From: Longimicrobiales bacterium
GTDB taxonomy: Bacteria > Gemmatimonadota > Gemmatimonadetes > Longimicrobiales > Gaopeijiaceae
DNA length: 64,000 bases
Reading direction: 5' to 3'
Assembly (NCBI GenBank): GCA_965219445.1
Contig: CBDCNQ010000004.1
Location: forward strand, 1,152,001 to 1,216,000
Of the stretch, positions 13,742 to 24,279 are shown in pieces. Every line of letters begins with the position of its first letter. Position 1 is the stretch's first letter. The notes under the pieces are model-generated. The model searched no databases. It saw nothing but the letters and a program-made list of their open reading frames with translations, and was not told where the DNA came from. The position numbers and the translations under genes are program-made.

Positions 13742-15249
13742 GCACATCCGCTGAACACATGAGCCAGCAGGACCTTGAGTCCTACCTCTGGGGCGCCGCG
13801 AAGCTCTTGCGGGGCCTGATCGATGCCGGCGACTACAAGCAGTACGTCTTCCCGTTGCTCTTCTTCAAGCGCCTGTCGGACGTGTGGGACGAGGAGTACC
13901 AACGCGCGCGCGACGAGACGGGTAACGCTCGGGCCACTGCCGATGACCGTTTCGTGATCCCCGACGGCGCACACTGGTCCGACGTCCGCAGTGCGTCTCG
14001 CGACGTGGGCCGGGCACTGCTTAAGGCCTTCCGCGCCATTGAGGCGGCCAACCCGGAGCGCCTGAACGGCGTCTTCGGGAATGCCTCGTGGACAGACAAG
14101 GCGCAGATGCCCGACGAGACGCTGAAGAATCTCATCGAGCACTTTTCACAGCACACCTTGAGCTTGGCCAAGGTCCCAGAGGACGAGCTGGGCAACGGCT
14201 ACGAGTACCTCATCAAGCAGTTCGCCGCCGACAGCGGCCACACCGCGCAGGAATTTTACACCAACCGCACCGTGGTCCATCTCATGACGCAGATGCTTGA
14301 GCCGCAACCGGGTGATCGCATCTACGATCCAACGGCCGGCACGGCCGGCATGCTCATCTCGTCGCTGGCGGAGGTGAAACGCCGAGGCGGTGACGCGCGC
14401 ACGCTGGGGCTATACGGCCAGGAGCTGATCCACATCACGGCCGCCATTGCCCGGATGAACTTGGTCCTGCACGGCGTGGAAGACTTCGAGATCGTCGCGG
14501 GCAACACGTTGAGCCAGCCAGCATTCATCGACCGCGACCACCTACGGACTTTCGACGTGGTCCTCGCCAATCCGCCGTACTCGATCAAGAAGTGGAACCG
14601 CGAGGCGTGGCAGCACGACCCCTGGGGCCGCAACTTCCTCGGGACGCCGCCGCAGGGCCGCGCCGACTACGCCTTCTTCCAGCACATCCTCAAGAGCCTC
14701 GACCCACAGACCGGCCGCTGCGCAATTCTCTTCCCGCATGGTGTGCTCTTCCGCAACGAAGAAGCGGCGATGCGGCGACAGCTTGTCGAGTTGGACCTTC
14801 TCGAGTGTGTGCTCGGCCTCGGACCGAACCTCTTCTATAACTCGCCCATGGAAGCCTGCGTGGTGGTGTGCCGAACACGGAAGCCCTCCGGCCGCGAGGG
14901 AAAGGTCTTGTTCATCGACGCTGTGCATGACGTGGCACGGGAGCGGGCCCAGAGCTTCCTCAAGGCCGAACATCAGCAGCGCATTCTCACCGCCTATCAG
15001 GCGTTTACCGATGACCCCGGCTTCGCCAAGGTCGCGACGGCGACGGAAATCCTCCAGAAGGACGGCAACCTGTCGATCTCACGCTACGTGCGGCCAGTTG
15101 CCGGTGCAGCCGACGACGCCAGCCCAGGCGGCGATCTGCGGAGCGCTTGGGCCGAGTTCGAAGCGAGCGGCCGCGATTTCTGGCCGCAGATGGACGCGCT
15201 CGTAGACATACTGGATGGCGTTGCCACAGAGGAGACGTCCGATGCTTAA
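13738..15249 (+). CDS. hsdM: Type I R-M methyltransferase subunit (NPPY, m6A type)
   Basis: EFYT, DPTAGTAG, NPPY, FPHGVLFR. Confidence 0.95.
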   Translation: MSTSAEHMSQQDLESYLWGAAKLLRGLIDAGDYKQYVFPLLFFKRLSDVWDEEYQRARDETGNARATADDRFVIPDGAHWSDVRSASRDVGRALLKAFRAIEAANPERLNGVFGNASWTDKAQMPDETLKNLIEHFSQHTLSLAKVPEDELGNGYEYLIKQFAADSGHTAQEFYTNRTVVHLMTQMLEPQPGDRIYDPTAGTAGMLISSLAEVKRRGGDARTLGLYGQELIHITAAIARMNLVLHGVEDFEIVAGNTLSQPAFIDRDHLRTFDVVLANPPYSIKKWNREAWQHDPWGRNFLGTPPQGRADYAFFQHILKSLDPQTGRCAILFPHGVLFRNEEAAMRRQLVELDLLECVLGLGPNLFYNSPMEACVVVCRTRKPSGREGKVLFIDAVHDVARERAQSFLKAEHQQRILTAYQAFTDDPGFAKVATATEILQKDGNLSISRYVRPVAGAADDASPGGDLRSAWAEFEASGRDFWPQMDALVDILDGVATEETSDA

Positions 15250-16423
15250 ATCGGCGTCCAAGAACGGGTGGATCAAGCACCGCTTCGATGAGATGGCGGT
15301 CGTGGTCAATGACCGCATCGATGACCCTGCCAAAGCCGACGTTGAGTACTACGTCGGCCTTGAGCATCTCGACTCTGAGTCACTCGCCATCCGTCGATGG
15401 GGAGCACCCTCTGACGTAGGTGCAACCAAACTGCGATTTCGGGCTGGTGACATCATCTTCGGTCGGCGGCGGGTGTACCAACGCAAGCTGGCGGTGGCCG
15501 ACTTTGACGGCATTTGTTCGGCGCACGCCATGGTACTCCGGGCGAAGCCAGCCGTCGCGTTGCCTGAGTTCCTACCATTTTTCATGCAGAGCGACCTCTT
15601 TATGGAGAGGGCGAGGGAGATTTCTGTCGGATCCCTGTCGCCGACAATCAACTGGAAGACCTTGGCGAAGGAAGAGTTCGCCCTGCCGCCGCTGGGAGAG
15701 CAGCGGCGGATTGCTGAGGTTCTAGGTGCAGCGGAGTCGGTGGTTGAGTCGCTACGTAACCTGAGACGATCGCTCCACGCTGTAGAAATCGGACACCTTG
15801 AGGACGTCATGCTCGGAATGCCTAATAGTGCACTTGTACCTGTGGCGACACTACTCCGCGAGCCGCCGCGAAACGGCATCTCCCCGAGTGTAAACTCCGA
15901 TGGAGAAGGCCTCAAGACAGTGAGTATCAGCGCGGTCAGTGACGGGATCTTCGATCCAACCGGGTGCATCAAACATGCGAAGATCGATGCTGACGTTGCC
16001 TGCCAGTTCTTTGTAAAGCGCGGGGATGCCTTTGTCATTCGTGGCAACGGGAATCGTCAACTTTGCGGCAAGGTGGGCCTCAGCGACGAATCCCACGATG
16101 AACTCTTCTACCCGGATCTTCTAATTCGGCTTCGTTTTGACACGAACAAAATTCTCCCGCAGTTCGCAGTAGCACAGTGGAACTTGCCCAGCGTCCATAG
16201 GCGGCTTAGTGCTAAAGCTAAGTCATCAAATGGGATCTGGAAGGTCAATGGACAAGACATCCGTGCTCACCATCTCTTCGCCCCTGCTCCTGCGGAACAG
16301 CGGAGCATGATGGGAGATCTCGCCACGCTTCGGGCGGGTCTTTGGAATGTCCGGGCACGCGAAGGAGCCGCTCAGCGTATCAAAGGGATATTAACGACAG
16401 AGGTTGGGTCAATAGGTGTGTAA
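15242..16423 (+). CDS. hsdS: Type I R-M specificity subunit; last codons supplied by the IS256 end
   Basis: Two TRDs with PPLGEQRRIA and PAEQR spacers; C-terminal EVGSIGV is read from the IR at 16400. Confidence 0.92.
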   Translation: MLKSASKNGWIKHRFDEMAVVVNDRIDDPAKADVEYYVGLEHLDSESLAIRRWGAPSDVGATKLRFRAGDIIFGRRRVYQRKLAVADFDGICSAHAMVLRAKPAVALPEFLPFFMQSDLFMERAREISVGSLSPTINWKTLAKEEFALPPLGEQRRIAEVLGAAESVVESLRNLRRSLHAVEIGHLEDVMLGMPNSALVPVATLLREPPRNGISPSVNSDGEGLKTVSISAVSDGIFDPTGCIKHAKIDADVACQFFVKRGDAFVIRGNGNRQLCGKVGLSDESHDELFYPDLLIRLRFDTNKILPQFAVAQWNLPSVHRRLSAKAKSSNGIWKVNGQDIRAHHLFAPAPAEQRSMMGDLATLRAGLWNVRAREGAAQRIKGILTTEVGSIGV

Positions 16424-16428
16424 ATGTT

Positions 16429-17673
16429 TCAGGCGGCGTTTTTCCGCTGTTGGGTTGAGACGGGCTTTCCGTCTTCGAACTTTCTTCCTTCAAATACGTC
16501 CTTGAGGAGGTGAGGAGCGTCGAGCCTTCTGAAGCGCTTCTCCGCCACCAAGAGCAGCTTCCAGATCAGCGCCGTAGCGCTCTCGACCCGCTTGAAGCGC
16601 TTCGCCGCCGTTGTCCTGAGCCGTACTGCGGCAAAGGGGCTCTCGACCACGTTCGTCGTGCGTAGATGCTTCCAGTGGTCCTCGGGGAAGTCGTAGAACG
16701 CCACCATCCGCTCCCAGTCGTCCTCGAGTACATCCACCGCCTTCGGATACCACGGTCTGTAGCGCCTGGCGAACGCCTCACGGGCCTTCAGCGCCTCGGA
16801 CCGCCTCGGTGCGTAGACCACGGTCCTGAGAAGGTCCTTCGCCTCGCTCTGCTCCCGCTGAGGCAGCCGGTCCAGCACGTTCCTCATCTTGTGGTTCCAG
16901 CACCGTTGCTCGCCCGCCTCAGGCCATACCTGCCGTACTGCGCCCCAGATCGCCGCGTTGCCGTCCGCCATCAAAAGCCGGGGCGCCTCGATGCCGCGTG
17001 CCTTCAGATCCCGCAACACCTCGGACCAGGACTCGACCGACTCTCGGTAGCCCGATCTCAGGGCCAACACCTCCTTCGTACCATCTCGCATCGCACCGAG
17101 AACCACCAGCAGCGCTGCCTTGTCCCGCTCGAGCCCCGCCTTCACGTAGATCCCGTCCGCCCAGACGTAGACGACCTCACGGTCGGCCAGCGAGCGCTTC
17201 GACCATTCCTCGAATTTCCTTGTCCATCCCGCCCGCAGCCGCCAAATCGAAGACTTCGACAACGGGGCCCCCTCGCCCAGCAGGCCCCGCATCGCCAGCT
17301 CGAAGTCTCCCTCCGCCAGCCCGTGCAGATACAGCTCCGGAAGCAGAGCACCCACCTCCTTCGTCCGTCGTGCGAACAACGGCAACACCCGACTCTCGAA
17401 CCGCTCCTCAATGCCTCGAACCCGGGGCCGTCGGAGCATGATCGTGCCCGAGCTCATCGCCAGCCGCCGAGCCTTGCCGTAGCCGTTGCGGTAGCCTGGC
17501 GCCGGGTCTACGACCGTCTTCCGCTCCGACTTCTCCCGGCCGAGCAACTCCGTCACTTCCTCCTCCAGAATCCGCTGGACCATCTCCTGGGCCTTCTCAC
17601 GAACCAGCGCTTCCAAGCACTCCCACGTCGGCGTGCTGGACTCACTCTCGGGTCCCACCATATTCTTCCTCAC
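16429..17673 (-). CDS. IS256-family DDE transposase
   Basis: YRNGY, WADG, MADG, QRCWNH, RTTNVVES. Confidence 0.95.
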   Translation of the reverse strand: MRKNMVGPESESSTPTWECLEALVREKAQEMVQRILEEEVTELLGREKSERKTVVDPAPGYRNGYGKARRLAMSSGTIMLRRPRVRGIEERFESRVLPLFARRTKEVGALLPELYLHGLAEGDFELAMRGLLGEGAPLSKSSIWRLRAGWTRKFEEWSKRSLADREVVYVWADGIYVKAGLERDKAALLVVLGAMRDGTKEVLALRSGYRESVESWSEVLRDLKARGIEAPRLLMADGNAAIWGAVRQVWPEAGEQRCWNHKMRNVLDRLPQREQSEAKDLLRTVVYAPRRSEALKAREAFARRYRPWYPKAVDVLEDDWERMVAFYDFPEDHWKHLRTTNVVESPFAAVRLRTTAAKRFKRVESATALIWKLLLVAEKRFRRLDAPHLLKDVFEGRKFEDGKPVSTQQRKNAA

Positions 17674-17766
17674 GAGGCATCGTTCCTTTCCCCCGGGCGC
17701 TCACCCGGGATTCGCTGGTTAACTTCTTACTACCTAGCGGAAAGGTACGTCGCCTCTTTTTTTACA

Positions 17767-19666
17767 ATCGGGATAGGGGAGGACCGGCGATCCCGGTCCT
17801 TCCCCTCCCACACCACCAGGCATGCGGGTCCGCACCTGGCGGTTCGGTGAGTTGAGGTCAGTACGGCGTGAGCCGGGGCACACCCAGCTCGTCGAAGTAC
17901 GCCCCTGGCAAGGCCGTGTGCAGGGCGTGGTGCGCGGCCACGTGCCACCAGCTTCGCGCGAACCGAGCAGCTCGCCAGGCGAGGTTCTCGCTCACACCGC
18001 GAGCCCTCAACTCCCGGTACGCTGTCCTTCCCCGTTTCCACTGGCGTAATTGCAACGTACGCAGCCGGCGGTGGATCCATTGGTCCAGGTCTCGGAAAAC
18101 CCCCGGTGTATCCGCTAAGCCGAAGTATGCCTTCCACCCCAGCACGTAGCGCCGTAGCTCTTCTGCCACCTGTTGCAGGCTCCGCCCGCCACTCCGGCTT
18201 GTAATCTGCCGGACTCGCTCCTTGAACTTCGTCAGGGCCTTCTTGCTGACCCGGCGCTTCACGACCTTCCCTGCCGCTACCCAGAAGCTGTAGCCCAGGA
18301 ACTGTCGATCCCACACTCGCGCCACCGCGCTCTTTTCCTCGTTGACCTGAAGCCGAAGTTTCCCGTACAAGTGCCTCAGCGCCTGCATCACACGTTGTCC
18401 TGCCCGCCTCGACCGCACGTATACATTGCAGTCATCGGCGTACCGGACAAACGCGTGTCCGCGTAGCTCCAACTCCTTGTCCACTTCGTCCAGGAGCACG
18501 TTCGCCAGCAACGGCGACAACGGTCCGCCCTGAGGCGTCCCCATGTGCCGCTCCATCACCACCCCGTTCGCCATGACTCCGGCTTCCAGGTAGCGACGGA
18601 GGATCCGCAGCATCGCCTTATCCTCGATCCGCTTTGCCAGCCGCCCCATCAGCACGTCGTGGTTCACCCGGTCGAAAAACTTCTCCAGGTCCACATCCAC
18701 CACCCATCGTCTCCCCTCCTGGATGTAGTGCTGCGCTTCGCGCACCGCATCGTGCGCTCGGCGCCCAGGCCGGAAGCCGTGGCTGTGCCGACTGAACGTC
18801 GGGTCGAACCTCGGTTGCATCACCTGCAGGATGGCTTGTTGGATGAACCGGTCCAGCACGGTCGGAATCCCCAACTCCCGGACCCCTCCCCCACTCTTCG
18901 GTATCTCCTGCCTTCGTACCGGCTTCGGTTGGTAGGTCCCCGCCAGCAACCGCTGTCGGATCTCCCCCCAGTGCCTGCGCAAGTACTCTGGCAGCTCCTC
19001 CACGTTCATCCCGTCGATGCCCGGACTGCCCTTATTCTGCCGCACGCGTTTCAACGCTCCTACGAGGTTGGCACGCCCGACCACCTCCTGCATCAGGAGA
19101 TGCTCGCTTCCTGAGCGCTCGTCTCCATGGGCCACCGTTCCGGCTTCGCCACTCCCCTCTACCTTCGGGGCTTCACCCCTATCCTCCAGTGGGAGCTCCA
19201 GTTGCCTGGACTCCTGGCGCATGGCCTTGCCGAGGTCCACGGTCGTCACGCTCTCCTCTCCGTTCGGCCCTTCGTCCGACAAAGCTGGGTCCAAGCGCAT
19301 CATGCACTTCGTCGGCCTACTATGGCCTCTGCTGACTTCTCGCTCCGCCGGCAGGCCCAACAGCGCAGTGCCGGCGTCACCCTTTCAGGCGTCAGGCGAG
19401 ACCTCCCCGGGTAAGAACGATGACCTTCCCCGCACAATCGCCGGATCTACGCCGCTTCCCCTTGGTCGCAGGAGCTTCGCGGTCAGTGGTCCGCTCGCCC
19501 CGGTCCGCAGCGCCTCGTATCCGGTTCCTGTTCGTCGACTCACGGGTTCGTTTCACGCTTCGTTCAGCGTACGCCTCACGACGAACGCCTTGCGCTTCCC
19601 TTCGGTCCCTGCGACCAGGTTCCGGGAGGACTTTCACCTCCAAGTCATCGCCCATGCCGGGCCCAC
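17767..19666 (-). ncRNA. Group II intron, class C (1900 nt)
   Basis: 5' GTGGGCCCGGCATGGG; short domain V with CGC triad; domain VI with bulged A; 3' end CCCGAT; removal restores the IS256 IRL exactly. Confidence 0.92.
17858..19249 (-). CDS. ltrA: Group II intron reverse transcriptase/maturase, no endonuclease domain
   Basis: RT0 SPGIDG, DLEKFFD, PQGGPLSP, YADD, FLGY, domain X; GTG start with RBS (start uncertain). Confidence 0.95.
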   Translation of the reverse strand: MTTVDLGKAMRQESRQLELPLEDRGEAPKVEGSGEAGTVAHGDERSGSEHLLMQEVVGRANLVGALKRVRQNKGSPGIDGMNVEELPEYLRRHWGEIRQRLLAGTYQPKPVRRQEIPKSGGGVRELGIPTVLDRFIQQAILQVMQPRFDPTFSRHSHGFRPGRRAHDAVREAQHYIQEGRRWVVDVDLEKFFDRVNHDVLMGRLAKRIEDKAMLRILRRYLEAGVMANGVVMERHMGTPQGGPLSPLLANVLLDEVDKELELRGHAFVRYADDCNVYVRSRRAGQRVMQALRHLYGKLRLQVNEEKSAVARVWDRQFLGYSFWVAAGKVVKRRVSKKALTKFKERVRQITSRSGGRSLQQVAEELRRYVLGWKAYFGLADTPGVFRDLDQWIHRRLRTLQLRQWKRGRTAYRELRARGVSENLAWRAARFARSWWHVAAHHALHTALPGAYFDELGVPRLTPY

Positions 19667-19841
19667 CACCCTTCTATGGGGCTGGCGGTCAAGACGCACC
19701 TTCCCCACGCGCCGTCGGCTCATTTTTTGACCGTCGGCGTCCGCATGGTTTGGATTGCCCGGTCGACGACTCAGGGTGGGGAGGGGTGCGCTCGCAGGGT
19801 CCGCATCGCAGTCCGGAAGACGTTCACAGCCGTCGCGTTCT

Positions 19842-19990
19842 CCGCTCTGGAGCGGGAACCATCCTTCTATCTGGGACTCTGTGGCCCATCGCTTCGTTCG
19901 GCTCTCCAGGGGTGCATAGCCTTTGAGTGGGGGCTTGGGCTCTCTGCCCCGGCCCACGGTGTGTATGGATGCTGTCCCCTGTAACCGGTT
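19842..19990 (-). ncRNA. Predicted bridge/seek RNA (target and donor loops)
   Basis: Two stem-bounded internal loops carrying TACACACC + TCAAAGG (target) and GATG + ATAGAAGG (donor); transcript ends unknown. Confidence 0.8.
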
Positions 19991-20058
19991 CGCTTCCGTT
20001 TCGTCGGACCCCATGTTGTGACCGCTTTCGACCCCACGCTCGCCGATCCCAGGCCGGT

Positions 20059-21114
20059 TTACTCCGTCGCTTCCAGTCTCTTGGGGTCGTACGCTTCGCC
20101 CGTGCGCCACACCGCTAGCACGATCGAGGCGAGCTGACGCGCGATCGTCAGCTTCGCCAGATTCGGCTTCGTGCCCCCCTCCAGGAGTCGCTCGTAGTGG
20201 CGGTACAAGGGCTCGTCCTCGGCCCGACCGATCACCGTCGTCGCTGCGCCCTTGAACACACGCTTCAGCGTGTGGTTGAAGTTCCGATTCAGCCCCCGCG
20301 TCTGCTGTACCGGTTCCCTTACCCACCGCCCACCCGGACCCCGCACCCAGTCCGACGAGCTCCGCATCACGACGCCCAGTCCGCAGTACGCCCAGAACCT
20401 GCTCCGGCTCTGGAACCGGTACGGCGTCACCACCACCGGCAGGAGCTCCGCCGTCCGGATCGGACCCAGACCCGGGCACGTCTTCAGCACATGCCACTCT
20501 CGATGCTTGCGTGCTTCCGCCAGCAACGCCTTCTCGGCCTTCGCCCTCAATGCCACGAGTGCGTCGTGCTCCTCGTACAGCAACCCGGCCGTCGTCCTGC
20601 TCGCTTCCGGCAGCTTGGCCAACCACTCCTCCCGGTCGCGCTTTAAGTAGACCGAGCGCCCCGCGCCGTAGGCCACTCCTCTCGAGCGCAGCACGCTCTT
20701 GAGCCGGTTCTTCACCCGCACCGTGTCGCCGACCAAGAAGTCGTAGCTCTTCGCCCGTTCCCCCAGCCGCCTGAACTGGCCCCGGTTCTTGTAGACCGTC
20801 GTCTCCAGTGATCCGATCCGCAGCTTCTCCGCCAGGGCAAACGCGTCCAGCTTGTCGGTCTTCGGGCCCCGGCTCTTGCCGACCCCCGCCACCGTCAGCT
20901 CCTCCACGTGCGGCTTCAGCACCTCGTACAGCCACCCCGACAGCGTCCCTTCTTCCAGGCATAAGTGCCGGTTCCTCGGAATCCCTCGCAGCACCTCGAT
21001 CAGCGCCCGCGCGTTCGTCTCCACCACCTGCGAGCCCAAGCGCTTGCCGCTGGGGCCTACAATCCCCAGCGTGCAGCTCGACGCGTGTGCGTCGAGTCCG
21101 ATATACCTCTCCAT
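20059..21114 (-). CDS. IS110-family DEDD recombinase
   Basis: GLDAH, LEEG, KTDKLDA, CPGLG, YCGL..RSS; RBS GAGGAGG. Confidence 0.95.
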   Translation of the reverse strand: MERYIGLDAHASSCTLGIVGPSGKRLGSQVVETNARALIEVLRGIPRNRHLCLEEGTLSGWLYEVLKPHVEELTVAGVGKSRGPKTDKLDAFALAEKLRIGSLETTVYKNRGQFRRLGERAKSYDFLVGDTVRVKNRLKSVLRSRGVAYGAGRSVYLKRDREEWLAKLPEASRTTAGLLYEEHDALVALRAKAEKALLAEARKHREWHVLKTCPGLGPIRTAELLPVVVTPYRFQSRSRFWAYCGLGVVMRSSSDWVRGPGGRWVREPVQQTRGLNRNFNHTLKRVFKGAATTVIGRAEDEPLYRHYERLLEGGTKPNLAKLTIARQLASIVLAVWRTGEAYDPKRLEATE

Positions 21115-21309
21115 GGGCATCCTCCTCTTGGGTAGGACGGGTTGGGTTGCTTGCTTGCGCGAATAATGATGAACGCGCACCCGCTCCCGGAGGAGAACGC
21201 CTCTTCGTCTTCGGGCTGCTTCGCTGCTGATCGGTACCGGTAGCGGTCGCCATGCCCCTATGATGCCTTTGATCCTAGCTCCCTTGGCGACACACAGGGT
21301 GTGGCCTGG

Positions 21310-24279
21310 ATGGGTAGCTTCAACGAAGCCAATACGGTCGAAGCTTTCATCCGAGACCGTCTATGTGGCGGTACCACACATCACACCGCCGTCCGCTCCG
21401 GCCTGGCCCATCGTCACAGTCAAGTGTCCGGTCTTGGCTGGCACTACCTCGCACCACAGAATCTGTCACGCCAGCCGCACGAAGTCCTCGTTGAGGATCG
21501 TCTCCGTGAGGCGTTGATTCGACTGAACCCGGAAATTGCCGAACAGCCTGACCGTGCGGACGACGTCCTGTACAAGCTCCGCGCCATCATCATGGGCGTA
21601 CGTAGCGACGGGCTTGTCAAGGCCAACGAGGGGTTTGCGGCTTGGCTGACCGGCGAGCGGTCGATGCCGTTTGGCGAGCATGGCGAGCACGTGACCGTCC
21701 GGCTGATTGACTTCGAGGACCTCAAGCGCAATCAATACGTCGTCACCACCCAGTTCACCTACCGTGCCGGCGCGACCGAGAAGCGGGCGGATCTCGTCCT
21801 GCTGGTCAACGGCATTCCCCTGGCGGTAATCGAAGCGAAGACTCCCGTCCGGGCCAGCCAAAGCTGGTTCGACGGCGCACTCCAGATCCATGACGACTAC
21901 GAACGCAATGTCCCGGAGCTGTTCGTTCCAAACGTCATCTCCATCGCCACTGAAGGCAAAGAGTTCCGGTACGGGTCCATCGGTCTGCCGGTTGAACTGT
22001 GGGGACCATGGCGCATCGAGGCGGACGCTGAGACACCGGCCCTTGTGCGCATCGCCCAAGCCGTCGACTCGATGCTACGGCCGAATGTCGTTCTGGATCT
22101 ACTGGCCAACTTCACAGCGTACGCCACGGACAAGAATAAGCGCCGCATCAAGATAGTTGCGCGCCATCAGCAGTACGAGGCCATCAATCGAATCATGGAG
22201 CGTGTGGTCGCGGGCCACCCGAAAAAGGGTCTCATTTGGCATTTTCAAGGTTCGGGCAAGTCCCTCCTGATGCTCTTCGCCGCCCGCAAGTTGCGACTGC
22301 ATGCGGCGCTCAAGAATCCCACCGTGATGGTCGTGGTCGATCGCGTCGACCTCGACAGCCAGATTTCGAGCACGTTCTACGCCGCCGACACACCGAACTT
22401 GGTGAAGGCCGACAGTCGGGTCGAACTGCAGCGCCTGCTGACGCAGGACACTCGAAAGATCATCATCACGACGATCTTCAAGTTTGCGGAGGCCGAGGGT
22501 GTCCTGAACGACCGCGGCAACATCATCGCGATGGTCGACGAAGCCCATCGCACGCAGGAAGGCGATCTTGGCCGCACGATGCGCGAGGCGCTACCAAACG
22601 CTTTTCTGTTCGGCCTGACCGGCACACCGATCAACCGCGCTGACCGCAACACGTTTTACGCCTTTGGGGCCGAGGAGGACCAAGCTGGCTACATGAGCCG
22701 CTACGGTTTCGAGGAATCGATCCGCGACGGCGCCACGATGCCGCTCCACTTCGAGCCGCGGTTACTGGATCTGCACATCGACAAGGAAGCCATCGACCAG
22801 GCGTTCACGCAGCTCACGGGTCGCCTAAGCGACCTGGACAGGGACCAGTTGGCGAAGACTGCCGCGAAGATGGCGGTACTGGTGAAGTCCCCGGAACGGA
22901 TCCAGACGGTCTGCGCCGACATCGCGCGGCACTTCCAAGAGAAGGTCGCGCCGCACGGCTTCGGCGCCCAGGTGGTCACCTTCGACCGCGAAAGCTGTGT
23001 GCTCTACAAGGAAATGCTCGACGAGCACCTGCCGTCTGAGATGTCGGACATCGTGATGACGGTCAACAGCGGCGAGGACCAATATGCCGCGTACCGTCGC
23101 GACCGCGACGCCGAAGAGAAGCTGCTTTACCGATTTCGCGATCCAGCCGACCCACTGAAGATCTTGATCGTCACCTCGAAACTGCTGACGGGGTTCGACG
23201 CGCCTATTCTTCAGGCGATGTACCTCGACAAGCCGCTTCGAGACCATACGCTGCTACAGGCGATCTGCCGCACGAATCGGCCCTTCGGTGAGGTCAAGAC
23301 GCACGGGCTCATCGTTGACTATCTTGGGGTCTTCGACGATGTGGCGCAGGCGATTCAGTTCGACGAGGAAGGAATCACCAGGGTCATCAAGAACATCAGC
23401 GAGTTGGCTGGTCGTCTGCCCGAGGCTGTGCAGAAGTGCCTCGCGTACTTCCCGGACGTCGATCGGATCGTTACCGGTTACGAGGGCCTCGTGGCGGCGC
23501 AGGCCTGCTTACCGACCAACGACGTGCGAGATCACTTCGCCGCCGACTACAGCTACCTGGCGCGATTGTGGGAGGCCCTCTCACCGGATCCTGTCCTGAG
23601 TGCGCACGAGACCGACTACCGCTGGCTCACGCAGGTCTACGAGTCTGTGCGACCTTCGACGGGCACGGGCCGCCTTCTGTGGCATGCACTTGGCCCGAAG
23701 ACCATTGAGCTGATTCACGAGCACGTCCACGTTGACGCCATCAGAGACGACCTCGAAACGCTCGTGCTCGACGCCGATCTCCTTGAGGCTGTGCTCGGCG
23801 CGCCCGATCCAGGGAAAAAAGCGAAGGAGATCGAGATCAAGGTCTCGCGGTGGCTTCGGAAGCGTCTGCACGACCCTCGGTTCAAAGAGCTTGGAGAACG
23901 GCTGGAGGCGCTCAAGGAGAGACATGAGCGGGGACTGCTCACGAGTGTTGAGTTCTTGAAGGAACTGCTTAATCTCGCGCGGGATGTCGTGTCAGCCGAT
24001 CGCACGGTGCCTCCGATGGAACGCGAAGAGCAAGGGAAGGCGGCTCTTACCCAGCTCTTTGAAGAGGCGAGAAATCCCGACACTCCGATCATCGTCGAGC
24101 GCGTTGTGACCGACATCGACGAGATCGTGCGGTACGTTCGGTTCGACGGCTGGCAGAGTACGCATGCGGGCGAACGCGAGGTCAAGCTAGCCCTTCGAAA
24201 AACGCTCTTCAAGTACAAGCTCCATCAAGATCAGGAGCTGTTCAACAGAGCGTACGGCTACATCAGAGAGTATTACTAA
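21310..24279 (+). CDS. hsdR: Type I restriction endonuclease subunit R
   Basis: D..NG..EAK nuclease, QGSGKS, DEAH, TGTP, TGFD, QAICRTNR. Confidence 0.95.
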   Translation: MGSFNEANTVEAFIRDRLCGGTTHHTAVRSGLAHRHSQVSGLGWHYLAPQNLSRQPHEVLVEDRLREALIRLNPEIAEQPDRADDVLYKLRAIIMGVRSDGLVKANEGFAAWLTGERSMPFGEHGEHVTVRLIDFEDLKRNQYVVTTQFTYRAGATEKRADLVLLVNGIPLAVIEAKTPVRASQSWFDGALQIHDDYERNVPELFVPNVISIATEGKEFRYGSIGLPVELWGPWRIEADAETPALVRIAQAVDSMLRPNVVLDLLANFTAYATDKNKRRIKIVARHQQYEAINRIMERVVAGHPKKGLIWHFQGSGKSLLMLFAARKLRLHAALKNPTVMVVVDRVDLDSQISSTFYAADTPNLVKADSRVELQRLLTQDTRKIIITTIFKFAEAEGVLNDRGNIIAMVDEAHRTQEGDLGRTMREALPNAFLFGLTGTPINRADRNTFYAFGAEEDQAGYMSRYGFEESIRDGATMPLHFEPRLLDLHIDKEAIDQAFTQLTGRLSDLDRDQLAKTAAKMAVLVKSPERIQTVCADIARHFQEKVAPHGFGAQVVTFDRESCVLYKEMLDEHLPSEMSDIVMTVNSGEDQYAAYRRDRDAEEKLLYRFRDPADPLKILIVTSKLLTGFDAPILQAMYLDKPLRDHTLLQAICRTNRPFGEVKTHGLIVDYLGVFDDVAQAIQFDEEGITRVIKNISELAGRLPEAVQKCLAYFPDVDRIVTGYEGLVAAQACLPTNDVRDHFAADYSYLARLWEALSPDPVLSAHETDYRWLTQVYESVRPSTGTGRLLWHALGPKTIELIHEHVHVDAIRDDLETLVLDADLLEAVLGAPDPGKKAKEIEIKVSRWLRKRLHDPRFKELGERLEALKERHERGLLTSVEFLKELLNLARDVVSADRTVPPMEREEQGKAALTQLFEEARNPDTPIIVERVVTDIDEIVRYVRFDGWQSTHAGEREVKLALRKTLFKYKLHQDQELFNRAYGYIREYY

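Follow-up and report, generated by a model that had tools for sequence, protein, structure and literature searches.

How did an IS256 element, an IS1111-group element and a group II intron come to lie within one another between hsdS and hsdR, and did two of them seek the same site? The window analysed here is a 64,000-nucleotide stretch of a Longimicrobiales contig. The original prediction held that both inserts are RNA-guided and that the left inverted repeat (IRL) of IS256 serves them as a shared landing pad, much as attC does in integrons. As shown below, the two inserts are unequal partners: the IS1111-group element is a specialist for this repeat and the intron is not.

Nested inserts in the IS256 left repeat

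The features of the locus are:
15215..16423, + strand: hsdS, type I R-M specificity subunit (profile search, sequence)
16400..16424, - strand: IS256 right inverted repeat, 25 bp, intact
16429..17673, - strand: IS256 DDE transposase, 414 aa, intact
17761..17766, - strand: IS256 left repeat, inner 6 bp; its first base, T, is the 3' exon base of the intron
17767..19666, - strand: class IIC group II intron, 1,900 bp
17811..17843, - strand: intron domain V, CGC triad, short stem (folding)
17858..19249, - strand: intron-encoded RT/maturase with YADD
19483..19490, - strand: candidate EBS1 loop ACCACUGA
19667..19670, - strand: IS256 left repeat, middle 4 bp (GGTG), being the intron IBS1 and the start of the IS1111 right target
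19671..19672, - strand: putative AG core, right copy
19673..21266, - strand: IS1111-group element, ends in AGA; 1,596 bp including one core copy
19677..19707, - strand: weak hairpin (-6.1 kcal/mol as DNA) of the IS1111 right end, stopping 10 nt short of the intron
19687..19692, - strand: -35-like box TTGACC
19863..19870, - strand: predicted IS1111 donor guide ATAGAAGG
19920..19928, - strand: predicted IS1111 left target guide ACTCAAAGG
19958..19965, - strand: predicted IS1111 right target guide TACACACC, complement of GGTGTGTA
20059..21114, - strand: IS110-family DEDD recombinase, about 351 aa, intact
21267..21281, - strand: IS256 left repeat, outer part including the left AG core copy
21301..24279, + strand: hsdR, now 4.9 kb from hsdS

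Excision of 19670-21265 and 17767-19666 rebuilds GAGCTAGGATCAAAGG/GTG/TGTAAA (slashes mark the joints), which matches the right repeat (16400-16424) at 20 of 25 positions, as originally predicted. This level was reached by 0 of 200,000 random 25-mers drawn from contig C4. The rebuilt 25-mer is found unsplit in relatives: of the 60 free left repeats listed there, 59 are letter-identical to it and the remaining one has a change at position 4. One locus with an identical outer flank is empty in one relative (G006, L060) and filled in another (G007, L052). The nesting of inserts in the IS256 left repeat is confirmed. At the hsdS site itself, no empty allele was found among the 260 family genomes searched.

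The host element encodes a Mutator-type DDE transposase (PF00872; NF033543 at 295 bits, cut-off 150), whose DNA is identical in 16 genome copies, and terminal inverted repeats are present. Its right repeat now supplies the last seven codons and the stop of hsdS. Target duplications of 8-9 bp were seen at 10 of the 24 full IS256 copies and are absent at the window copy (CGCCAAGG vs TGTCGTTA); the flanks of many copies have been swapped between copies. A sigma-70 scan of 16300-21400 gave 0 promoters, with none of hybrid origin serving the IS256 gene or hsdR.

Reads cover part of this structure. Contigs of runs X1 and X2, from one study, pass from hsdS into the right repeat as far as 16427 with no differences, and the intron-free joint has a depth of 146 and 127, respectively, vs 5-7 for single-copy sequence. 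With 11 differences from the window in its main intron contig, X1 is probably another strain. Neither the intron junctions (one comparison, four contig sets) nor the altered free repeats described below were among the read-based rows listed, so that the third layer, the intron, is known from the assembly. Copies of both the IS1111 element and the intron are mosaics of two haplotypes, and conversion or assembly mixing therefore blurs all ordering.

These mosaics, the missing intron junction among the listed read rows, the few matching target duplications, the swapped flanks, and three altered repeats with letters resembling the IS1111 right junction would all fit a mixing of reads from many repeat copies, which would make artefacts of the altered free repeats and of the junction bearing the intron. 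We consider this very unlikely. On both sides the intron is joined with single-base precision and in keeping with its exon rules, and the 16 IS256 bodies are error-free. Furthermore, a 3-bp junction duplication is also present in another genome (G007, L053), and the altered repeats of a second relative, G219, carry target duplications of their own.

The IS1111-group element and its predicted guides

The recombinase scored over the cut-offs of PF01548 and PF02371 (DEDD RuvC-like and Transposase_20, respectively) and under that of NF033542 (111.8 bits, cut-off 140); a PDB sequence search gave no match. About 390 nt of non-coding sequence lie downstream of tnp vs about 150 nt upstream. Near-perfect subterminal repeats of 11-13 bp with 7- and 3-bp extensions are expected in the IS1111 group. 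Here the repeats, around GGGGC, are imperfect: ATAGGGGCATGGCG and ATGGGGCTGGCG align only with two 1-nt gaps, and the 7/3 spacing fits if counted from the AT. The element occupies a single site in a single orientation, with no target duplication beyond the core, and each of its junctions has a copy of AAGG. On the right, relatives show different bases after AG (AGA, AGT, AGC), whereas the G on the left is constant, so that AG is the likely core; this would place the element at 19673-21266 including one core copy. The two insertion sites were first put at 3 bp apart; from this putative core to the intron the distance is about 4 bp. Joining the ends in silico puts TTGACC 17 bp from a -10-like CATCAT, a spacing that arises only in the circle junction; no circle joint was among the read-based rows listed.

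The prediction that IS1111 targets the IS256 left repeat was borne out by 23 of the 24 IS1111 left junctions in the present genome, all at the same base of the IRL, and the filled hosts include some that are only 79-89% identical. Junctions at this base were also found in 6 of 300 other family genomes. The left target guide has a 7-nt match to the IRL and matches the single off-target site at 9/9, while the donor guide has its match in the circle junction, on the side of the right end. The right-guide target GGTGTGTA spans the intron site, as had been noted, and the intron lowers its match from 8/8 to 4/8. In the predicted fold, both target guides lie unpaired in a single internal loop (z -2.07), and they are invariant in 23/23 copies having both ends. 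Their order is top-strand complement first, and both target strands are covered. Folds of the IS1111 donor loop and of EBS1, taken alone, were no better than shuffles (z -0.21 and 0.07).

Relatives that have other flanks carry correspondingly changed guides, for example L073, L076 and L084, in a comparison in which 3 of 25 other rows are misaligned and L071 and L091 misfit their right flank. The target predicted from the L071 guide did not occur as a repeat in the five genomes searched. A guide variant in G255, AACCAAAGG, was considered as a sign of host-change tracking. It sits in GGAACAA repeats and was not counted, because it does not complement the changed base. The IS1111-group element is an IS256-end specialist, with a predicted guide RNA that would read the left repeat.

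Filled copies could also multiply as daughters, with the IS256::IS1111 composite moving as a unit or the IS1111 excising cleanly beforehand. The 16 identical IS256 copies point to a recent burst, yet the genome has no intact free copy left, and in G219 all five filled copies share a junction variant seen in no free copy, as co-transposition would also give. Restoration of the target by excision is described for IS621 in the available part of PMC13626964. Nevertheless, we judge this reading unlikely: identical hosts never carry identical passengers, and near-identical passengers sit in diverged hosts. There are 22 distinct IS1111 haplotypes among 23, and the sole identical pair is in hosts 89% alike. 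Host and passenger splits disagree in G219, and the filled hosts of G321 comprise three different IS256 types. Within the IS1111 group itself, the accessible text of two papers has empty targets not being regenerated by ISEc11 (PMC11187229) or by IS4321/IS5075, the latter with 0 deletion junctions (PMC5001619). Donor flanks are needed for movement.

The class IIC intron and the likely order of insertion

The intron is present in 13 copies that are 98.8-100% identical, which imply probable recent mobility. Its ORF, for which GGAGAGGAG upstream suggests a GTG start, matched TIGR04416 over the cut-off and has a GIIM domain; no profile match to an endonuclease (En) domain was obtained. The best structure match of the RT was the GsI-IIC RT (E 4.7e-145), and domain V has the short stem and CGC triad that we take to be a class C hallmark. 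The predicted EBS1 candidate, ACCACUGA (19490-19483) closed by GCGG/CCGC, was recovered both in the Rfam D1 alignment and by folding; its CAC(U) would pair with the exon end (G)GTG. Because only 3-4 exon bases pair, calling the intron RNA-guided overstates the case.

At the 13 intron sites, G at exon -3 and T at -2 are invariant and +1 is a pyrimidine in 12. Hairpins of -10 kcal/mol or stronger, the top 4% of 3,000 background sites, precede nine of them. The introns lie on locally G-rich strands at 10 of 13 sites, and a replication-strand bias is weak and noisy. The window hairpin is weak, as 29% of background GGTG/Y sites fold equally well, and no conservation of it was seen by eye among relatives. 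Once IS1111 is taken out, a fold of -5.1 persists in the flank, its hairpin then lying farther upstream.

These sites bear directly on the landing pad, under which both elements would have specialised in the IS256 left repeat, like the IS1111-attC and IIC-attC elements in attC. One stacked case does exist, and the chance of at least 1 of 13 introns falling in 21 such sites among about 8,350 loose candidates is about 3%, a post hoc estimate that ignores selection for harmless sites. The introns, however, show no preference for IS256 or IS1111 ends, an outcome that the original prediction itself had named as refuting it: only 1 copy of the 13 here lies at such an end, and among 25 distinct sites in five other genomes there was none. 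Terminator-like hairpins precede most of the sites. No case was seen in G321, G339, G366 or G255, each having the intron together with free or filled repeats, and free left repeats lack a hairpin (-0.3 to -3.8). Of 261 family genomes only the present one has the stacked junction, which was seen in no metagenome contig. The shared pad was rejected as most improbable. Instead, the class IIC intron is likely a hairpin or terminator seeker and the stacked copy a one-off visitor.

The insertion order was likely IS1111, then the intron, as proposed at the outset. The genome holds 21 intron-free IS1111-in-IS256 junctions. Of the alleles that were to be sought, the empty repeat and the repeat with IS1111 only are present among relatives, whereas a repeat with the intron only, or a second stack, is absent from 23 genomes.

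Apparent saturation, proposed history and known systems

In the assembly, IS1111 has consumed every intact left repeat. No free perfect 14-bp target is left, and all five free repeats, at C4:199262, C4:1221680, C5:267938, C5:483712 and C5:635832, are altered at guide-read bases. In G219, 5 copies are filled and 10 are free with an altered core. Not every genome is saturated: G321 combines 6 filled repeats with 5 that are intact and free, and G323 has 1 filled and 44-45 free. In G195, 37 core-altered and 3 intact free repeats were counted, and the present IS1111 element was absent by two patterns, so that core variants need no current IS1111. The present genome and G219 suggest saturation of left repeats and IS256 escape, but G195 shows such variants in abundance where the element is lacking. 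A fuller arms race is a tentative and rather doubtful extension: a bridge-RNA element exhausts the left repeats, IS256 escapes via core changes spread by transposition, imprecise loss leaves immune scars, and the hunter's end makes a site where a IIC intron locks the hunter. As for imprecise loss, IEE-driven deletions near IS length via 2-4-bp microhomology are described in the available text of bioRxiv 10.1101/2023.06.07.543989 for IS629, ISApl1 and other DDE copy-out elements; IS110/IS1111 appear there only as circle-forming families. The present genome encodes an AEP-TOTE plus helicase protein.

We favor, as quite probable, a history in which a guide-RNA-matched IS1111 fills IS256 left repeats and a hairpin-seeking intron came later by opportunity, not by IS256 targeting. 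IS256 would first have entered the hsdS-hsdR junction. An IS1111 circle, with RNA expressed from its junction promoter, would then have paired with TCAAAGG and GGTGTGTA and recombined at the AG core, splitting the repeat by a mechanism taken from known family members. This insertion would have put a weak hairpin 10 nt upstream of an EBS1-readable GGTG/T, at which the intron may have reverse-spliced. The halved right-guide match may now lock the window IS1111 copy in place. Immobilization of the IS256 host by IS1111 is plausible and likely, although the outer 13-16 bp of its left repeat persist after insertion, which counts against it, as do the target restoration by IS621 and the junction variant shared in G219.

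The locus provides a natural example, open to counting, in which an IS fills nearly all copies of another by means of a predicted programmable RNA. Targets in the filled, free and altered states allow comparison both inside one genome and between genomes, which makes it testable whether these elements hold their hosts in check and whether the hosts escape. Relatives provide naturally reprogrammed guide/target pairs and point to the AG core of an uncharacterized IS1111 branch. The three-layer stack is a curiosity and no new targeting system.

An IS110 element with a bridge RNA and an IS256 target was not found in the literature searched; ISfinder-based tables in supplements could name IS256 ends. 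Nearest among known systems are IS4321 and IS5075 in Tn21 repeats. They too belong to the IS1111 group, insert at a fixed position within the terminal inverted repeat of a different mobile element and have an AGA right terminal extension (available text of PMC5001619 and PMC11187229); the former describes one strain with all available sites occupied. In contrast, the present element targets an IS256-family IS of Gemmatimonadota (Longimicrobiales-type relatives) at its 25-bp left repeat, and the subterminal repeats are imperfect. As described in the accessible portions of PMC11187229 and PMC11208160, ISEc11, ISKpn4, ISPa11 and ISPst6 share with the present element a long non-coding region downstream of tnp, a donor guide, two target guides in IS1111 order (top-strand complement first, PMC11187229), a junction promoter (here a candidate one) and natural reprogramming among relatives. 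They differ from it in that the present target is new, the recombinase distant and the guide RNA predicted from sequence. GsI-IIC class introns resemble ours in having no EBS2 requirement, a short EBS1 pairing, an RT without endonuclease and insertion behind DNA stem-loops, mostly terminators (PMC8643678, in part); the present intron differs in its 5' end, GTGGG, and in having one copy at an IS1111 end hairpin. Finally, IIC-attC and IS1111-attC elements likewise come to rest only a few bases apart, inside the recombination site of a different element. According to the available text of PMC3001079, each of those lineages is attC-specialized, whereas here only the IS1111-group element is specialized.

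A three-element nest between hsdS and hsdR

Three mobile elements lie within one interval of a type I restriction operon. The features are listed below, guides being predicted bridge/seek RNA segments of the IS110-family (IS1111) element.

Features of the nest
16429-17673, minus strand: IS256 transposase, between hsdS and hsdR of the type I restriction operon
17767-19666, minus strand: group II intron, 1,900 bp, same hsdS-hsdR interval
minus strand: IS110-family element, between hsdS and hsdR, beside the intron and IS256
19965-19958: right target guide TACACACC, complement of GGTGTGTA, downstream non-coding region
19928-19920: left target guide ACTCAAAGG, downstream non-coding region
downstream non-coding region: donor guide ATAGAAGG

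Excision of both inserts yields a 25-mer that agrees with the IS256 right repeat at 20/25 positions, a level reached by 0 of 200,000 random 25-mers. It is a genuine repeat, identical in 59 of the 60 free (unsplit) repeats listed from five relatives, and its intact centre is present in 41/44 metagenome matches. These results confirmed the original observation that excision rebuilds the IS256 left inverted repeat (IRL). An empty allele was also found, at one locus where the repeat is empty in relative G006 and filled (split by IS1111) in G007. The three-element nest is real. Read-derived contigs (sets X1 and X2, one study) confirmed the hsdS-IS256 junction. The intron-free IS1111-IS256 joint had depths of 146 (X1) and 127 (X2) versus 5-7 for single-copy DNA, and intron junctions were absent among the matches listed.

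The nest parts hsdS (15215-16423) from hsdR (21301-24279) and gives hsdS a new C-terminus; it may uncouple restriction from methylation. No target duplication surrounds IS256 (21282-21289 versus 16392-16399). The last nine letters of the left flank recur in the flank of the C4:110844 copy, from which this left flank, joined at a 3-bp microhomology to the apparent start of the expected duplication, may derive by carry-over or conversion.

Intron sites and likely order of insertion

The intron is of class IIC, by its best structural match (the GsI-IIC RT) and its insertion habit. A hairpin of at most -10 kcal/mol (top 4% of background) precedes 9 of 13 copies in the source genome, two of the nine sites having an identical flank. 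The exon always has G at -3 and T at -2, and 12/13 sites have a pyrimidine at +1, in agreement with the proposed EBS1; the class IIC behaviour described in available text of PMC8643678 agrees with both patterns.

The proposal that the intron shares the IRL with IS1111 as a landing pad was refuted. Only the window copy, among the 13, contacts IS256, and none of 25 distinct upstream flanks from five other genomes (30 loci, the remainder being duplicates or without the exact 19-nt start) is an IS256 or IS1111 end. Neither an IRL-intron nor a stacked junction pattern occurred in 23 genomes; across 261 genomes the stacked junction was seen in the source genome alone, and in no metagenome contig. 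Because none of the intron sites listed elsewhere lies at these ends, the suggested attC analogy (comparison system from parts of PMC3001079) holds for IS1111 and fails for the intron. In G006, a 219-bp internally deleted intron retaining both ends only (C2:512460-512921) directly abuts the 5' part of another intron.

As first proposed, IS1111 likely preceded the intron, since 21 intron-free filled junctions were found in the source genome (the anticipated allele with IS1111 only), no intron-only allele was detected by junction pattern in 23 genomes, and the match of the right guide, which indeed spans the intron site, drops from 8/8 to 4/8 once the intron is present. The IS1111 right end carries a hairpin that stops 10 nt short of the intron site, whereas the five free repeats of the source genome lack one (-0.3 to -3.8). 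Counting against this hairpin argument, the fold is weak (-6.1, with 29% of background equally strong) and the window flank minus IS1111 still folds to -5.1, farther upstream. The chance of one such intron hit is about 3%, a loose, post hoc estimate. Because IS1111 donors require correct target flanks for movement (PMC11187229, in part), the intron-bearing copy, its right flank being altered, would be locked in place.

Predicted guides and target of the IS1111 element

In the source genome, 23 of 24 IS1111 left junctions fall at one identical base of the IRL, bearing out the proposed IRL targeting, and the lone exception (C2:336726) fits the left guide 9/9. The identical right junction is present in 6/300 other family genomes; named relatives whose recombinase is 95-99% identical are Longimicrobiales MAGs. 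TACACACC and ACTCAAAGG are unpaired inside one loop of the predicted fold. The guides are invariant in 23/23 copies having both ends and switch along with the flanks in relatives bearing other flanks, as at locus L073 (flanks GGATAGG/AAATCCAA; guides GGATAGG and TTGAATTTC). Of the 25 other rows compared, three were misaligned, and two, L071 and L091, have guides that mismatch their own right flank. Joining the ends in silico gives TTGACC-17-CATCAT. Since the right-hand AGx differs among relatives at its third position while the left side retains G, we infer an AG core, which would place intron and core 4 bp apart, not the 3 bp originally described.

At L071/L171 (G267) one 94%-identical IS1111, whose guides differ, lies with its left side in an IS256 right repeat and borders unrelated DNA on its right. 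At C5:1611142-1613245 (source genome) and L291 (G105) about 0.5 kb of the right part, including part of the non-coding region, is duplicated in tandem. A reciprocal insertion is present in G007 (C3:56723-58118), where an IS1111 copy is split by an IS256-like element of 1.4 kb with a duplication of 8 bp.

Possible target exhaustion, altered repeats and known systems

Of greater interest than a shared pad is possible target exhaustion and escape of IS256. No free perfect 14-bp target is left in the source genome, and each of its five full left repeats that are still free carries changes at bases read by the guides. TCAGAAGG, TCGAAGG and TCAAGG occur in copies whose remaining sequence matches the window IS256 at 100%, TCAGAGG and GTGAG in 88-89% copies. 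The first three are absent from 60 free repeats (five genomes) and 44 metagenome matches, three of the latter having same-length changes in the A run. Two of the three retain right-end-like letters, as imprecise IS1111 loss would leave; assembly mixing could also produce these. G007 has a 3-bp duplication at the junction, and the source genome encodes an AEP-TOTE and SF2 helicase protein (C5:1202836-1205352) of IEE-like architecture (compared with parts of bioRxiv 10.1101/2023.06.07.543989).

In relative G219 (also G440), 15 full IS256 copies include five filled, with an AG-A junction. Ten free repeats have altered cores by pattern (8 AT, 2 TA; one on a partial IS256 copy), mostly in copies with target duplications of their own, and neither an intact free repeat nor a filled AT copy was found; the altered core is a candidate escape allele. 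On its contig C1 (e.g. L294-L303), altered-core copies are all free and the five AG-A copies filled. An arms race is opposed by G195, a complete genome with 37 AA-core free repeats (L312 and others), three intact ones and no IS1111 match, and by two unsaturated genomes, G321 (6 filled and 5 intact free repeats) and G323 (1 filled against 44-45 intact and free). Copies and genomes in these counts are mutually non-independent.

The IS1111 insertions look independent and later than the spread of IS256, since identical hosts never share identical passengers (22 haplotypes in 23), near-identical passengers occur in diverged hosts, and in G219 the split among hosts does not agree with that among passengers. 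This reading, and that of immobilisation, is weakened by mosaicism: in the source genome the IS1111 and intron families are both mosaics of two haplotypes, nearly every copy being distinct. On the same side, one junction variant is common to all five filled copies of G219. IS1111-group elements regenerated no empty target in two studies (parts of PMC11187229 and PMC5001619); IS621 does (PMC13626964, in part). Judged from sequence, the host IS256 is likely immobilised by IS1111. Matching duplications are lacking at 14/24 full IS256 copies in the source genome, the three scarred young copies among them. Many of the flanks have been exchanged cyclically from copy to copy, which implies that copies have undergone inversions or translocations with one another, or were misjoined.

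Among the paper listings searched, none reports IS256 ends as the target of a bridge RNA. The window element is of a known kind, the IS1111 group: most of the tested group features (from sections of PMC11208160) are present, its subterminal repeats being imperfect, and its guide order agrees with that described for IS1111 seekRNAs in available text of PMC11187229. As far as PMC5001619 describes them in part, IS4321/IS5075 in Tn21 repeats work alike, and IS4321 has the AGA end in common with it.
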